Positions 58,279 through 64,000 are shown, counted from the stretch's first letter. The stretch: DNA of 64,000 nucleotides from Myxococcota bacterium (GCA_963674735.2 CAXXQS010000002.1:1920001-1984000); one strand, 5' to 3'. Numbers and translations are program-made. The notes: generated by a model not told the origin, from the sequence alone.

Positions 58279-58322
58279 GGGTTGTGGCGTTGCCGGGCAT
58301 GTACCGGGAAGTGCAGTCCTGT

Positions 58323-58877
58323 TCATGTCTCTCGAACCTTGGTTTTCTTGAACTTCATGCCCGTACATTTGGCTTTTCGGATCGCTTTGACAATGGGCTC
58401 GGCCAAAAACGTCGTACCGCAGCCGCGCGGTCGAATCACTCGACGATCACCCAGTTTCGACCGTTGCAACACTGGAGCGACAACGGATGATTTGCTGATC
58501 TTTCCATCCATGCCATAGCCGTAATCCGTCCATTCCTCGTCCAGCACGTCCGGTCGGTCGGGGATGTGCAGGGCGTAGTAGGTGTGAAGGATGCCGTCTT
58601 GGTCTACAACGATGTTTTCCAGCCATTCGTAGGCATCGCTCGGCGAGGCATTCTGATCGATGATGGATCTAAGAAGTGGCGAACATAATTCCCAGCCTAA
58701 ATCATTGACAAGATAGTCGGTAAGGATTCCATCACGTAGCTCGAAGATTACCGGTTTCCATTTGTCGTAATGCTTCCCTTCCTGTCTCAGTGTCGGATAA
58801 AGGCCCTGAGGTGTATATCCAACACCGAAGGACATGTCGGAACTGCGAAAAAGATTGTAGAATATTTTCTGAGCCAT
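58323..58877 (-). CDS. Imm11 (DUF1629)-like immunity protein, cassette 7
   Basis: DYLVNDLGWELCS, YYALH...DVLD, KAIRKAKCTGMKF; start MAQ with AGGAG RBS. Confidence 0.75.
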   Translation of the reverse strand: MAQKIFYNLFRSSDMSFGVGYTPQGLYPTLRQEGKHYDKWKPVIFELRDGILTDYLVNDLGWELCSPLLRSIIDQNASPSDAYEWLENIVVDQDGILHTYYALHIPDRPDVLDEEWTDYGYGMDGKISKSSVVAPVLQRSKLGDRRVIRPRGCGTTFLAEPIVKAIRKAKCTGMKFKKTKVRET

Positions 58878-58954
58878 GTTATCTCCTAAGCTTTGCAACG
58901 ATTTATTCATACCACTCGGATCGTATCATGCCCGGTTCAGCTGTAATATGGGAG

Positions 58955-59521
58955 TTACACTACACGCTCTATTTTGAATTTCATGCCCGTGCATTTGGCT
59001 TTCTTGATGGCTTTCACAATTGGTTCTGCAAGAAAAATTCCCGGAGAATGCCGAGCACGAACAACTCGGTAACCATCGATTTTATTTCGACTGAATATAG
59101 GCCAGATAACTCTTCGCTTATCAAATGTGCCATCTTGATTATGGCCATAACTGCCAGCAGCTCCCATTGCATCCTCATCCAACACGTCCGGTCGGTCGGG
59201 GATGTGTAGGGCGTAGTAGGTGTGACGGACGCCGTGTGGATCAATAACGATGTTTTCCAGCCATTCGTAGTTGTCTTTGGGCGAGGCGTGCTGATCGATG
59301 ATGGATTTCAGTCGCTCCGAACACAAGACCCAGCCTAAGTCGTTGACAAGGTAATCGGTAAGGATTCCATCACGTAGCTCGAAGGTTACTGGAACCCAAT
59401 TATCGAAAGACGTTTCTTCCCAACGTAGAGTCGGATAGAGACCATTTGGTGTATAACCGACTCCGAAGGCAAAATTGCCGGAGCGAAACAATGAGTAATA
59501 TTTCATCGGCGATTTATTCAT
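58955..59521 (-). CDS. Imm11-like immunity protein, cassette 6 (divergent C-terminal half)
   Basis: Paralogue of the others; start MNKSP with GGGAG RBS. Confidence 0.75.
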   Translation of the reverse strand: MNKSPMKYYSLFRSGNFAFGVGYTPNGLYPTLRWEETSFDNWVPVTFELRDGILTDYLVNDLGWVLCSERLKSIIDQHASPKDNYEWLENIVIDPHGVRHTYYALHIPDRPDVLDEDAMGAAGSYGHNQDGTFDKRRVIWPIFSRNKIDGYRVVRARHSPGIFLAEPIVKAIKKAKCTGMKFKIERVV

Positions 59522-59576
59522 AGCAAGATCTCCCGTCAATACCATTCACTGCGAACCATACCCGGTTCAGTGCTGT

Positions 59577-60131
59577 TCATGTCTCTCGAACCTTGGTTTT
59601 TTTGAACTTCATGCCCGTACACTTGGCCTTTCGGATAGCTTTGACCACTGACTCGTTTAAAAACACGATGCTGGAATCACGTGGCCGAAAAATCCCATGA
59701 TCGTTGAGCTTCGACCGTTGGAGAATCGGAGCGATAATGCAGGACTTGTCGATGGTTCCATCCGCATTGCGACCGTAATCCGTCCATTCCTCGTCTAGCA
59801 CATCCGGTGGATCGGGGATGTACAAGGCGTAGTAAGAGTGGTGAATACCGTCTTGGTCCACGACGATATTTTCCAGCCATTCGTAGGCATCGTTCGGCGA
59901 GGCATGTTGATCGATAATGGATCTAAGAAGCTGGGAGCACAATTCCCAGCCTAAGTCATTTGCAAGATAGTCGGTAAGAATTCCGCCGCGTAGCTCGAAG
60001 GTTACCGGTTTCCATTTATCGTAATGCTTCCCTTCTTGTTCCAGTGTCGGATAAAGGCCTTGAGGTGTATAACCAACGCCGAAGGACATGTCGGAACTGC
60101 GAAACAGTTTATAGAAAAGTTGTTGAGCCAT
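59577..60131 (-). CDS. Imm11-like immunity protein, cassette 5
   Basis: Paralogue; start MAQQ with AGGAG RBS. Confidence 0.75.
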   Translation of the reverse strand: MAQQLFYKLFRSSDMSFGVGYTPQGLYPTLEQEGKHYDKWKPVTFELRGGILTDYLANDLGWELCSQLLRSIIDQHASPNDAYEWLENIVVDQDGIHHSYYALYIPDPPDVLDEEWTDYGRNADGTIDKSCIIAPILQRSKLNDHGIFRPRDSSIVFLNESVVKAIRKAKCTGMKFKKTKVRET

Positions 60132-60200
60132 GTCATCTCCTAAGCTTTGCAACGATTTATTCATACCACTCGGATCGTACCATACCCGGTTCGATGCTGT

Positions 60201-60755
60201 TCATGTCTCCCGCACCGTGGTTTTCTTGAACTTCATGCCCGTACATTTGGCTTTTCGGATAGCTTTCACGATGGGTTCAGCAAAAGAGGTCGTATTGCAG
60301 CCCCGCGGTCGAATCAGCCGACGATCACCCAGTTTCGATCGTTGAAGCATCGGAGCGACAATGCAGGATTTGTCGATGGTTCCATCCGCATTGCGACCGT
60401 AATCCGTCCATTCCTCGTCCAGCACATCCGGTGGATCGGGGATGTGCAGGGCGTAGTAGGTGTGACGGATGCCATTTTGGTCCACGATAATGTTTTCCAG
60501 CCATTCGTAGTCGTCCTGGGGTGAAGTATGCTGATCGATAATGGATTTCAAAAGATTCGAACAAAGCTCCCAACCTAAGTCGTTGACAAGGTAGTCGGAA
60601 AGAATGCCATCTCGTAACTCGAAAGTTACCGGAATCCATTTATCGTAATGCTTTCCTTCCCAAACTAGTGTGGCGTCGATGTCCCTAGGTGTATAGCCGA
60701 CGCCGAAGGACATGTCGGAACTGCGAAAAACATCGTAGAATAGTAATTGTTTCAT
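60201..60755 (-). CDS. Imm11-like immunity protein, cassette 4
   Basis: Protein identical to cassette 3. Confidence 0.75.
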   Translation of the reverse strand: MKQLLFYDVFRSSDMSFGVGYTPRDIDATLVWEGKHYDKWIPVTFELRDGILSDYLVNDLGWELCSNLLKSIIDQHTSPQDDYEWLENIIVDQNGIRHTYYALHIPDPPDVLDEEWTDYGRNADGTIDKSCIVAPMLQRSKLGDRRLIRPRGCNTTSFAEPIVKAIRKAKCTGMKFKKTTVRET

Positions 60756-60805
60756 CCTTCCCCCTTAATACCACTCGGATCGTACCATACCCGGTTCGAT
60801 GCTGT

Positions 60806-61360
60806 TCATGTCTCCCGCACCGTGGTTTTCTTGAACTTCATGCCCGTACATTTGGCTTTTCGGATAGCTTTCACGATGGGTTCAGCAAAAGAGGTCGTAT
60901 TGCAGCCCCGCGGTCGAATCAGCCGACGATCACCCAGTTTCGATCGTTGAAGCATCGGAGCGACAATGCAGGATTTGTCGATGGTTCCATCCGCATTGCG
61001 ACCGTAATCCGTCCATTCCTCGTCCAGCACATCCGGTGGATCGGGGATGTGCAGGGCGTAGTAGGTGTGACGGATGCCATTTTGGTCCACGATAATGTTT
61101 TCCAGCCATTCGTAGTCGTCCTGGGGTGAAGTATGCTGATCGATAATGGATTTCAAAAGATTCGAACAAAGCTCCCAACCTAAGTCGTTGACAAGGTAGT
61201 CGGAAAGAATGCCATCTCGTAACTCGAAAGTTACCGGAATCCATTTATCGTAATGCTTTCCTTCCCAAACTAGTGTGGCGTCGATGTCCCTAGGTGTATA
61301 GCCGACGCCGAAGGACATGTCGGAACTGCGAAAAACATCGTAGAATAGTAATTGTTTCAT
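60806..61360 (-). CDS. Imm11-like immunity protein, cassette 3
   Basis: Paralogue; GGGGGAAGG RBS. Confidence 0.75.
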   Translation of the reverse strand: MKQLLFYDVFRSSDMSFGVGYTPRDIDATLVWEGKHYDKWIPVTFELRDGILSDYLVNDLGWELCSNLLKSIIDQHTSPQDDYEWLENIIVDQNGIRHTYYALHIPDPPDVLDEEWTDYGRNADGTIDKSCIVAPMLQRSKLGDRRLIRPRGCNTTSFAEPIVKAIRKAKCTGMKFKKTTVRET

Positions 61361-61410
61361 CCTTCCCCCTTAATACCATTCGGAGCGAACCATGCCCGGT
61401 TCGATGTTGT

Positions 61411-61971
61411 TCATGTCTCCCGCACCGTGGTTTTCTTGAACTTCATGCCCGTACACTTGGCCTTTCGAATGGCTTTGACAATGGGGTCGGCCAAAAACGT
61501 CGTGCCGCAGCCGCGCGGTCGGATCACCCGACGATCACCCAGTTTCGATCGTTGAAGCATCGGAGCGACAATGCAGGATTTGTCGATGGTTCCATCTGCA
61601 TTGCGACCGTAATCCGTCCATTCCTCGTCCAGCACGTCCGGCCGGTCGGGGATGTGCAGGGCGTAGTATGTGTGACGGACACCGTGTGGATCAATAACGA
61701 TGTTTTCCAGCCATTCGTAGGCGTCGCTCGGTGAGGCGTTCTGATCGATGGTATTTTTTAGTCGTTCCGAGCATAGGTCCCATCCATACACGATGGCCTG
61801 ATAATCCGTGATTACTCCCACTCGTAAAATGAATTCCACGGGTTCCCACATGTTGTTCTGTTGTCTATCCAACAACATCCATTGCGGTGTTTTATTGATT
61901 ACCTCTGCCACTGGATGATTCAAGTCATCATCCATGAATAGCTTGTAGAAGCTAATAAAAGTATTTTTCAT
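61411..61971 (-). CDS. Imm11-like immunity protein, cassette 2 (divergent N-terminal third)
   Basis: Paralogue; AGGAGG RBS. Confidence 0.75.
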   Translation of the reverse strand: MKNTFISFYKLFMDDDLNHPVAEVINKTPQWMLLDRQQNNMWEPVEFILRVGVITDYQAIVYGWDLCSERLKNTIDQNASPSDAYEWLENIVIDPHGVRHTYYALHIPDRPDVLDEEWTDYGRNADGTIDKSCIVAPMLQRSKLGDRRVIRPRGCGTTFLADPIVKAIRKAKCTGMKFKKTTVRET

Positions 61972-62025
61972 ATTACCCCTCCTATGGATACCACTCGGAT
62001 CGTACCATGCCCGGTTCGACGCCGT

Positions 62026-62580
62026 TCATGTCTCTCGAACCTTGGTTTTCTTGAGCTTCATGCCCATGCATTTAGCTTTTCGAATGGCTTTGACAATGGG
62101 CTCGGCCAAAAACGTCGTACCGCAGCCGCGCGGTCGGATCAGCCGACGATCGCCCAGTTTCGATCGTTGCAACACTGGAGCGACAACGGATGATTTGCTG
62201 ATCTTTCCATCCATGCCATAGCCGTAATCCGTCCATTCCTCGTCCAGCACATCCGGTCTGTCGGGGATATGCAGGGCGTAGTAGGTGTGACGGATGCCGT
62301 CTTGGTCCACGACGACGTTTTCCAGCCATTCGTAGGCATCGCTCGGTGAGGCGTTCTGATCGATGATGGATCTAAGAAGTGGCGAACATAATTCCCAGCC
62401 TAAATCATTGACAAGATAGTCGGAAAGAATGCCATCACGTAGCTTGAAGGTTACCGGTTTCCATTCATCGTAATGCTTCCCTTCTTGTCTCAGTGTTGGA
62501 TAAAGGCCCTGAGGTGTATAACCAACGCCGAAGGACATATCAGAACTGCGAAACAGTTTATAGAAAAGTTGCTGAGCCAT
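62026..62580 (-). CDS. Imm11-like immunity protein, cassette 1 (presumed cognate)
   Basis: Starts 25 bp after the toxin stop; AGGAG RBS. Confidence 0.78.
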   Translation of the reverse strand: MAQQLFYKLFRSSDMSFGVGYTPQGLYPTLRQEGKHYDEWKPVTFKLRDGILSDYLVNDLGWELCSPLLRSIIDQNASPSDAYEWLENVVVDQDGIRHTYYALHIPDRPDVLDEEWTDYGYGMDGKISKSSVVAPVLQRSKLGDRRLIRPRGCGTTFLAEPIVKAIRKAKCMGMKLKKTKVRET

Positions 62581-62605
62581 GTCATCTCCTAAGCTTTGCA
62601 ACGAT

Positions 62606-63592
62606 TTATTCATACCATTCGGAGCGTATCATGCCCGGTTCATCCAGCACTTTTTCACGAACAAAACGGCCAAACAGATCCAGGAATTTATCAGCATCGG
62701 CACCGGCTTCACGTTGTGCTTCTTCCATTTTCTCCAATACAAATTTATGATAATCCTCCGCGTGCCGCCCGGTATGCGGGATTTCAACCTTGTTCCACGC
62801 ACCGTCGAGGTCGAGATCGTAAAAATCGGCGATCTTCTTGAACTCGGGTGTGTACTCCGAATGGTGGGTGTTGGATGCCAGGTGGTGCGTGTGGACTGGG
62901 AAAGACTTCAGCATGTCGCGGATGGCCGCGCGGCGTTCGGGCAGATCGTCCATGGCCTGTAGTGTCCGGCGGGCTTCGGCGACGCTCAGGAATTTCTTCC
63001 CGAATATGTAAACGACCGGACCGATCAGCAGGTCGGAAGGATCGGGAACACCCACCGCTTCAACGACTTCGGCGGCGGCGGCCAGGGCATCGGCGGCCTT
63101 TTGACCTGCCCGGTTCACGTCGGCGAGATAGGCTTGGCTGTCCGAGCCTTCGCCCGCCAGTGCTTGTTCGTGAGCCACCTTCCGTCGGATCTTCGCCTCC
63201 GCCTGATCCACGGGATCGCCGGTGAACCAGGATTTGACCCAGCCGCCCAGATTGTCCGCGTTCCAGAAATCCGATGGCGTTTCCGTTTCTTCATCCTCTC
63301 CGGTGAAGTGGAAGTCCATCTCGTCCATCCCTTCGTCGACCGGCGGTCTCGCGGCTACTTCCAATTTGCAGGCGCAATTGGGATGCAGGGGTGGGTGGAC
63401 GTCCCAATCCTGGGCGAGGCGTGTTTCTCCGTCGAGCGCCGCGCAGGCGTCGCAGGTCTTGTCGCCCGAGGTCACCCAGGTCAGGTATACCCGGTCGCCG
63501 TTATACCCGGCGACGGCAGCCAGGTGTCCGAACCGGCCCAGTTTCGCATAGGCCCGGTAGGTTTGGAGTCGTTCCGTTTCTATCTGCGCCAC
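62606..63592 (-). CDS. Polymorphic toxin: N-terminal minimal MuF (phage head morphogenesis-like) motif plus C-terminal AHH-like HNH nuclease
   Basis: WVTSGDKTCDACAALDG...PPLHPNCAC (MuF-like); THHLAS...LDGAWNKVEIP-HTGRH..YH (AHH-like); GTG start with GAGGAG RBS; followed by Imm11-like genes. Confidence 0.75.
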   Translation of the reverse strand: MAQIETERLQTYRAYAKLGRFGHLAAVAGYNGDRVYLTWVTSGDKTCDACAALDGETRLAQDWDVHPPLHPNCACKLEVAARPPVDEGMDEMDFHFTGEDEETETPSDFWNADNLGGWVKSWFTGDPVDQAEAKIRRKVAHEQALAGEGSDSQAYLADVNRAGQKAADALAAAAEVVEAVGVPDPSDLLIGPVVYIFGKKFLSVAEARRTLQAMDDLPERRAAIRDMLKSFPVHTHHLASNTHHSEYTPEFKKIADFYDLDLDGAWNKVEIPHTGRHAEDYHKFVLEKMEEAQREAGADADKFLDLFGRFVREKVLDEPGMIRSEWYE

Positions 63593-63714: not shown

Positions 63715-63999
63715 TCAGGGTGCATCGGGAGCGTCGGGGTCGTCTTCCAGATTCCACATGAATCGGCAGCGGCCCATCATGCAGGTTTCGATCGGTAAAC
63801 AATCGTCTTGATCCGAACATTGCGGTGGTGAGCACTCCTCGGCGATGCATAAAGCACCGATGGGGCAACTCGTGTCGTATTCACAACTCTGCTTGCGGCA
63901 AAGGGACTCGATGCAGGCGCTTTGGGGTGGGCAGTCGATGTTTGTTTCGCAGGGGAAGCTTTCACAGCCTGCCCGGTAACAAAGATAGCCGACCGGGCA
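63715..63999 (-). CDS. C-terminal end of a Cys-rich repeat protein (runs in from beyond the window)
   Basis: Not in ORF track. Open frame CPVGYLCYRAGCESFPCETNIDCPPQSACIESLCRKQSCEYDTSCPIGALCIAEECSPPQCSDQDDCLPIETCMMGRCRFMWNLEDDPDAPDAP* with a C-x5-C-x5-C-x4-C repeat. Confidence 0.75.
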   Translation of the reverse strand, partial: CPVGYLCYRAGCESFPCETNIDCPPQSACIESLCRKQSCEYDTSCPIGALCIAEECSPPQCSDQDDCLPIETCMMGRCRFMWNLEDDPDAPDAP

Positions 64000-64000
64000 A

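Follow-up and report, generated by a model that had tools for sequence, protein, structure and literature searches.

Toxin-end codons repeated between seven Imm11-like immunity genes downstream of a predicted AHH nuclease toxin in a Myxococcota genome

A 64,000-nucleotide stretch of a Myxococcota bacterium genome (GCA_963674735.2, CAXXQS010000002.1:1920001-1984000), referred to here as the window and numbered from its first letter, carries a predicted toxin gene followed by an array of seven immunity genes (I1-I7). The last ten codons of the toxin gene, hereafter the tail, recur with slight variation ahead of each immunity gene beyond the first (copies T2-T7, with T1 being the toxin's own end; Table 1). 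We read this, with slightly better than even confidence, as a chromosomal polymorphic-toxin locus composed of a toxin, its cognate Imm11-type gene and six orphan immunity genes. The tail may have served as the point of recombination through which the array was assembled.

A first-pass annotation of the window, made from its sequence alone, had named AHH, Imm11 and Phage_Mu_F as the families to search for. The toxin scores above the cut-off for Pfam AHH, in agreement with that proposal (PF14412; 39.6 bits, E 5.9e-10, cut-off 22.3), while its match to Phage_Mu_F stays sub-threshold (PF04233; 24.4 and 26.4 bits, cut-off 29.6). In a 35-sequence alignment of the AHH subfamily, residues H236, H237, N267, H277 and P319 are invariant and H282 is conserved in at least 90%, and the toxin keeps all six; the residue preceding the HH dyad, a threonine in the toxin, is variable among relatives. 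By its profile match and its complete set of subfamily invariant residues, the protein is a predicted AHH nuclease. Genome-wide searches identified the toxin as a single copy and the immunity genes as just these seven, and a profile search of the 5.26-Mb genome returned no other PF04233 match.

The N-terminal part of the toxin is also found with other partners. For instance, homologue P0049 has the same MuF-like N-terminus (52% identity over residues 3-81; 29.5 bits against PF04233, where the cut-off is 29.6) fused to a Tlde1 domain, as expected of a polymorphic toxin. Another homologue, P0025 (399 amino acids), shares the toxin's N-terminus yet is without any Pfam domain. Along the toxin gene, guanine-cytosine (GC) content is 0.54-0.69 up to about residue 241 and 0.51 from there on, compared with 0.49 in the array and 0.56 in the genome. 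This suggests that the AHH core and the immunity genes have another history than the N-terminal two thirds of the toxin, and the fall to array level fits the exchange of a C-terminal module.

The immunity genes are seven intact tandem open reading frames (ORFs) of 184-196 amino acids, all downstream of the toxin and on the same minus strand. Six of the seven were submitted to an Imm11 profile search (PF07791), I4 being omitted as its protein is identical to that of I3. Four of the six pass (24.5-35.7 bits, cut-off 22.1), I1 is sub-threshold (16.9 bits) and I3 has no match, these two being 62-93% identical to ORFs that pass. Both the presence of seven Imm11-like cassettes behind a toxin and the pairing of AHH with Imm11, as put forward in the first-pass annotation, are therefore upheld here by intact ORFs and Pfam matches. 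Pairwise protein identity among I1-I7 is 62-100%, synonymous divergence (dS) ranges from 0.25 (I1-I7) to saturated, and the ratio of non-synonymous to synonymous divergence (dN/dS) is 0.11-0.33; the cassettes are old and under purifying selection. I6 is the most divergent, with its own distinct C-terminus and a longer linker behind it, and in I2 the first ~80 residues are very divergent and the remainder is a patchwork of other cassettes. For I1, a public gene call begins at 62580 and gives 184 amino acids.

Table 1. Features of the toxin-immunity locus; positions are those of the window.
Feature	Position	Strand	Basis
Toxin gene, 328 aa (MuF-like N-terminus, linker, AHH nuclease C-terminal domain)	62606..63592	-	ORF, Pfam
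MuF-like N-terminal domain, under Pfam cut-off	63362..63580	-	PF04233 match
AHH nuclease core, residues 230-303	62684..62905	-	Pfam stretch
T1, toxin's own last 10 codons (EPGMIRSEWY), then GAA TAA	62612..62641	-	pattern match
I1, presumed cognate immunity gene, 195-aa ORF	62026..62613	-	ORF, Pfam, predicted complex
T2 tail copy, then CCA TAG	61988..62017	-	pattern match
I2, 186 aa	61411..61971	-	Pfam, pairwise identity
T3 tail copy, then TAA	61373..61402	-	pattern match
I3, 184 aa	60806..61360	-	ORF, pairwise identity
T4 tail copy, then TAA	60768..60797	-	pattern match
I4, 184 aa, protein identical to I3	60201..60755	-	ORF, pairwise identity
T5 tail copy, then GAA TAA	60163..60192	-	pattern match
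I5, 195-aa ORF	59577..60164	-	ORF, Pfam
T6 tail copy, serine codon TCC to AGT, then TGA	59539..59568	-	pattern match
I6, 196-aa ORF	58955..59545	-	ORF, pairwise identity
T7 tail copy, then GAA TAA	58909..58938	-	pattern match
I7, 195-aa ORF, 93% identical to I1	58323..58910	-	ORF, pairwise identity
Distal flank, presumed original downstream flank	58311..58322	-	alignment, junction listing
Perfect period-605 stretch, 1216 nt (2 x 605 + 6)	60163..61378	-	periodicity scan

The 30-nucleotide (nt) tail pattern (EPGM[IV]RSEWY) has seven matches in the window and none in 100 dinucleotide-preserving shuffles. Every copy starts with GAACCGGG, including T7, which lies behind the divergent cassette 6, and every copy ends with TGGTAT. 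These matches fall exactly where the first-pass annotation had placed the copies, and the fixed left border that it had described at GAACCGGG is likewise confirmed. Each junction runs in the same order: the stop of an immunity gene (…ACATGA), an 8-nt linker, the tail, an in-frame stop, a purine-rich ribosome-binding site (RBS) and the next ATG. The sequence after TGGTAT is of four types (GAA-TAA, CCA-TAG, TAA and TGA), and each is continuous with its own immunity 5' end, with its own RBS and ATG. In all types the in-frame stop comes 0-1 codon after the tail, and by simple arithmetic the chance of a stop within two codons is about 9% per unrelated sequence. A link between the four types and distinct immunity N-termini had been proposed from the outset. 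It stands for the sequence after TGGTAT, but not for the variants inside the tail, which are independent of cassette type. T3 and T4, for example, differ at four sites, yet the genes behind them are identical, and T1 and T5 also differ at four sites, yet the following 60 nt are 98% identical.

The short sequences in front of the tails give some indication of how the junctions arose. The linkers before T2-T6 form one 8-nt family in which five of the eight sites are variable, and T7 is preceded by a longer, diverged linker whose last 6 nt are still like those of the others. The same 8 nt are present in the distal flank, directly past the last cassette, after which the flank departs from the tail. 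It was considered as a decayed eighth tail and rejected as such, given that the similarity ends with the linker. Since the flank is homologous to the linkers and then runs off the tail, it is presumed to be one side of a founding join. Because all junctions look homologous, a single founding illegitimate join is likely; the border would then have been made once, when the original downstream flank was joined to toxin codon 319, and would have been inherited by all copies.

One further element differs in position between junctions. ATGAATAAATCG, which overlaps the toxin stop in type-A junctions (62602-62613), recurs 17 nt past the tail in the I6 junction (59507-59521), and this displacement points to an insertion or deletion between the junction types. 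In type-A and I6 junctions alike, the immunity protein may actually begin at MNKS.

Evidence of recombination is found throughout the array, and some of it can be placed within the tail. The period-605 stretch runs from within the TGGTAT of T3 to within that of T5. Its perfect periodicity indicates that a single cassette was recently duplicated and that both breakpoints fell within the final 6 nt of the tail, which also explains why T3 and T4 differ although I3 and I4 do not. Identity in the 3' part of cassette 6 is 45-56%, and it jumps to 93-97% precisely at the start of T7. The idea that the tail acts as a recombination anchor, already present in the first-pass annotation, is borne out by these duplication breakpoints and by this jump at the border of linker and tail. 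Even within the tail, the four-gamete rule is violated (sites 9 and 18).

Across the cassettes more generally, nearest-neighbour relations change every 30-100 nt, and 2364 of 4371 informative site pairs are incompatible. A statistic resembling the pairwise homoplasy index (PHI) is 0.468, compared with a permuted mean of 0.541 (standard deviation 0.015), a value reached by none of 2000 permutations. The cassettes are strongly mosaic, and they share a block structure in which a variable 5' region is followed by a conserved middle, a second variable region and a conserved block made up of gene end, linker and tail.

Variation in the tail is that of a coding sequence. Eight nucleotide sites vary among the seven copies, and the sole residue change is I/V; in a simulation, no more than one residue change from eight random sites was obtained in 2e-5 of 200,000 trials. 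Among T2-T6 alone, seven tail sites vary with zero residue changes, next to a linker that varies at five of its eight sites. The serine codon switch of T6 leaves the residue unchanged, and the tail as a whole bears three diverged synonymous haplotypes. Antisense ORFs of 139-146 amino acids that cross the tails were considered and judged not to be coding, as their translation differs between copies at most tail positions.

The tail peptide is, by alignment, a C-terminal motif that is conserved in this AHH subfamily. The subfamily motif reads NPxLLRKxxW; P is found in 43 of 43 sequences, W or Y occupies the position of toxin residue Y327 in 40 of 43, and the AHH homologues shown terminate 0-8 residues past the motif, mostly within three. 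The six remnants hold about 138 non-synonymous site-copies, which are unchanged apart from the I/V difference, and arithmetic limits their neutral residence to at most ~0.02 substitutions per site. Given the age of the cassettes (dS from 0.25 to saturation), neutral 30-nt remnants as old as these would be unrecognisable. The coding-like tails, their natural stops and the age of the cassettes together mean that the tail variants were shaped inside working toxin genes, or that they are still under protein-level selection.

The explanation that we favour, with a rough probability of 0.55, is that of a 3'-end displacement array built by homologous recombination, with the tail as crossover point and older immunity genes archived downstream. 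A founding illegitimate join would have brought toxin codon 319 up against the original downstream flank, forming a first unit of linker, last ten toxin codons and immunity gene. Later changes would have come about by ordinary homologous recombination, for which the tail and the conserved 3' block of the immunity genes would provide the crossover substrate; the tail would stay similar between toxin alleles because its 30 nt encode a conserved C-terminal motif. An incoming module of toxin C-terminus and immunity gene, supplied by an array-bearing relative, would cross over on its right within the tail, and the resident tail and immunity gene would be pushed downstream and kept behind the inherited linker. 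Crossovers between tails would duplicate or delete single cassettes, and gene conversion would yield mosaics. The outcome would probably be an archive of immunity variants that guards against the related AHH toxins of competitors.

This displacement model accounts for a border that is fixed, linkers that are neutral, tails that are under selection and have natural stops, and cassettes whose divergence is old. It builds on features that are observed directly, namely the anatomy of the array, tails that vary as coding sequence does, a recent duplication bounded by tails, mosaic cassettes and purifying selection. We infer in addition that the orphans derive from other toxin alleles or from earlier ones, and that their specificities differ. 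As no related strain or alternative toxin was present in the databases searched, capture from other strains is likewise something that we infer.

Structure prediction is consistent with several parts of this scheme. The predicted complex of toxin residues 205-328 with I1 reaches an interaction prediction score from aligned errors (ipSAE) of 0.88, the best of three controls reaching 0.01; for comparison, 58 of 80 solved complexes reach the ipSAE mark, as do 2 of 110 mismatched pairs. The model runs share at least 94% of contacts, with a partner pLDDT (predicted local distance difference test) of at least 90. The model supports binding of I1 to the C-terminal domain of the toxin, and tail residues 318, 321 and 326-328 sit in the predicted interface. 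Interface residues of the immunity proteins are more variable among cassettes than others (34 of 41, compared with 80 of 143 elsewhere; permutation P = 2e-4, in a test not controlled for exposure), which fits cassettes of differing specificity. Among solved structures, a profile search with the toxin returned no chains, and the immunity profile returned one lone immunity-like chain (6a4c) and six weak repeat-protein chains. By sequence likeness, then, no like complex has been solved.

Several points weigh against the displacement model. For RecA, 30 nt with 80-97% identity make a poor substrate, and the small frames that run through the tail in five of the six junctions, described below, could give it a role of its own within the array. 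The variability of the immunity interface is also less telling than it appears, as interface residues are surface residues and these are more variable anyway. Above all, the relatives from which modules would have been captured were not encountered. Homologues were present in none of the five other genomes of the family (six genomes in all), a degenerate tail pattern had no matches in metagenome_contigs or in genome_contigs, and a word-based toxin search returned the toxin itself alone. The best foreign toxin relatives are 49-53% identical in the AHH domain only, and the best foreign immunity protein, from among 5.8 billion proteins, is 41% identical. The cassettes are thus nearer to one another than to anything public, a pattern that would also fit local expansion. 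A pattern derived from the immunity alignment had 110 matches in genome_contigs, with no relative among them.

More distant relatives present a simpler organisation, which counts against the model as well. The comparison set consisted of 21 fetched metagenome and viral loci with distant relatives, on 20 distinct contigs (L041 is the contig of L029). An AHH toxin lies directly upstream of an Imm11-type gene in 18 of these 21 loci, L041 repeating L029. Each of the 21 has one immunity gene, many of the contigs being short, and none of 17 metagenomic AHH-Imm11 loci repeats its own toxin tail (at most 7 mismatches in 30).

A purely local history is the main, though less likely, alternative to displacement. 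Here, one microhomology duplication of tail, immunity gene and 8 nt would have been followed by unequal crossing-over, long divergence in place and conversion, with no contribution from foreign alleles. Such a history agrees with the single junction family, with the mutual closeness of the seven cassettes among 5.8 billion proteins, and with a perfect recent duplication accompanied by extensive conversion-like mosaicism. The first-pass annotation had itself set out a related scenario, one microhomology duplication plus drift, as the case that would speak against its proposal. The single founding join in that scenario matches the homologous junctions, but the drift is contradicted by the coding-like tails.

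Two variants of the local history, which we regard as similarly tentative, would explain the conserved tails without drift. In the first, tails are policed by exchange with the working toxin gene. However, the three diverged synonymous haplotypes require long protein-level selection, and frequent exchange would homogenise them. In the second, the tails are kept as part of mini-ORFs that relay translation. An ATG that overlaps the preceding stop (ATGA) opens a frame of 14-15 codons in five of six junctions, which reads MN-x-x-EPGMVRSEWY and stops where the following immunity gene has its RBS (e.g. 60798-60842), and these mini-ORFs could relay translation along the array. Yet a relay requires an open frame rather than a conserved peptide, the linker codons of the mini-ORFs do alter residues (S/G/N, I/V/T), and three different stop codons occur directly past the tail. 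Moreover, no start codon precedes the tail in the junction leading to T7, although T7 is intact. On these grounds, the mini-ORF was judged unlikely to be the cause of tail conservation.

It is highly improbable that the array is instead a site-specific cassette system, similar to an integron or to a recombinase-associated acquired interbacterial defence (rAID) island, with the border and its hairpin acting as the site of an enzyme encoded elsewhere. An identical left border in all copies, even after the divergent cassette 6, is what such a system would leave, but the same border also follows from descent from one founding join. A hairpin can be drawn across the border of linker and tail, with 6-9 of 9 pairs before T2-T6 (e.g. 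59560-59575 with 59545-59552). In T6, the linker has ACT where others have ATC and the tail has AGT where others have TCC, which allows 9 of 9 pairs once the register is shifted; this double change may be compensatory, or it may be a coincidence. Against this, pairing is poor at T1 and T7, and a search for a hairpin or attC-type site gave fold z-scores of -1.92 to +1.44, which lack significance, with one junction alone for which fewer than 10 of 200 shuffles fold equally well.

The surroundings of the array offer this alternative little more. No tyrosine recombinase is adjacent, since the genome has 11 PF00589 matches and the closest of them lies ~175 kb away; the neighbours are housekeeping genes, and the cassettes all belong to one gene family, unlike those of integrons or rAID islands. 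The likeness to an integron-like or rAID-like archive drawn in the first-pass annotation is therefore not sustained, with the recombinase distant, the neighbours housekeeping and the hairpin weak and inconsistent. We give very little credence to the proposal that the border is a small structured site at which an enzyme acting in trans inserts, excises or processes cassettes, which would make the locus a recombinase-in-trans system for toxin immunity.

The genome assembly is 94% complete in three contigs and seems to be of the metagenome type. Three sequencing runs of one study were used, of which X1 and X2 are from the same sample (possibly the source) and X3 from a second sample. Short-read contigs of X1 bridge three of the six linker-tail junctions without differences, X2 gives identical pieces, and X3 provides a single contig that bridges one such junction; the runs yielded no reported joints. 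Five deviating letters in X3 at 58434-58461 were rejected as a variant, since they equal I1 at the matching place and represent a mislaid piece of I1. A concatenation of strain variants of one toxin-immunity locus, suggested by the type of assembly and by the fragmentation of short-read contigs inside the array, is scarcely credible, as contigs bridge junctions in X1 and in the second sample, the junctions are regular and every ORF is intact.

Around the array lie dcw-cluster, RelA/SpoT, thiolase and FadB genes, together with genes for a Cys-rich DUF7107 protein and a PD40 propeller. The DUF7107 protein is the upstream neighbour of the toxin (63715-64000, on to C2:1984539), a cysteine-rich, lipoprotein-like protein of 274 amino acids, beyond which a 977-residue PD40 beta-propeller is encoded. 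Comparison with two relatives, G001 and G002, defined no insertion border: G002 shares thiolase and FadB only, G001 shares FadB only, and neither has the genes beyond the island.

Other systems have been described that resemble this locus in part. MuF polymorphic toxins of temperate phages, reportedly the subject of work by Jamet et al. in 2017, are said to combine an N-terminal MuF-like domain with exchangeable C-terminal toxin domains. These toxins are located in head-gene modules of prophages. The present toxin resembles them in that the same N-terminus occurs with different C-terminal toxin domains (AHH here, Tlde1 in P0049). It differs in its sub-threshold PF04233 match and its housekeeping neighbours, the annotation of which includes no phage, phage-head or secretion genes beside the toxin locus.

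Integrons and rAID islands provide a second comparison. The rAID islands are recombinase-linked arrays of diverse immunity families. Bacteroidales rAID islands (Ross 2019, cited in PMC8189183) and integrons share with the present locus a same-strand array of short cassettes split by a repeated element. Unlike integrons, however, the locus has no adjacent intI-type recombinase and no convincing attC-type structured site, and unlike rAID islands it has no nearby recombinase, its seven genes being of one family.

Further parallels are found at rhs and cdiA loci, where, according to a later study, displaced modules of toxin end and immunity gene gather downstream and can be swapped by recombination (Poole 2011, Koskiniemi 2014, cited in PMC5361080). 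As far as they are described there, such orphans retain part of the conserved core upstream of the toxin domain, often with the whole domain, whereas here the last 30 nt of the toxin alone are kept. C-terminal displacement and orphan modules at these loci are also said to have been treated by Jackson in 2009.

Arrays of the type VII EsaG/TipC kind hold tandem, non-identical immunity paralogues beside a polymorphic nuclease toxin (Garrett et al. 2022, PMC9484751). In esaG arrays, homology blocks alternate with variable regions, one block comprising the gene end and the downstream intergenic sequence, and inter-block recombination leads to gene gain, loss and mosaics (PMC9484751). The present array is similar to these in its homology blocks, variable regions, and recombinant and duplicated genes. 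It is unlike them in that the intergenic block holds the last ten codons and stop of the toxin in coding-like form, and in its combination of an AHH toxin and Imm11 immunity with no secretion system nearby; with one genome, events between strains are also invisible here.

The type VI secretion loci of Vibrio cholerae are also similar in how they work. There, an effector is accompanied by several immunity genes, and a new module shifts older ones downstream (Kirchberger et al. 2017, PMC5361080; Hussain et al. 2021, PMC8189183). Truncated effectors lie beside the orphans, and an integrase is described as uninvolved. In the model offered in these papers, an upstream homologous anchor is combined with an illegitimate downstream join at each event, and immunity families are mixed (PMC5361080; PMC8189183). 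Both settings have one toxin with immunity genes downstream, which here are seven and come with six 30-nt leftovers of the toxin end that vary in a coding-like manner. Unlike the Vibrio arrays as described, however, the present array has one shared border, a downstream crossover that is possibly homologous, within the tail, and a single immunity family.

In summary, orphan-immunity arrays are known, whereas no description of an array in which the last codons of the toxin recur ahead of every orphan immunity gene was found in the literature searched, a limited search without supplements; the feature not found there is the use of the toxin's own coding-like terminal codons as a repeated downstream anchor. 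Growth of such arrays has mostly been inferred by comparing strains, while here a single genome holds internal evidence, in that the cassettes retain the last codons and stop of a toxin gene and a fresh duplication shows crossovers within the tail. Seven diverged immunities with one toxin also make a compact set for the study of AHH-Imm11 specificity. If the displacement model is true, a conserved motif at the C-terminus of the toxin also serves as a portable anchor for homology, and ordinary recombination could archive immunities without the integrase of cassette systems or the repeated illegitimate joins of the Vibrio model.

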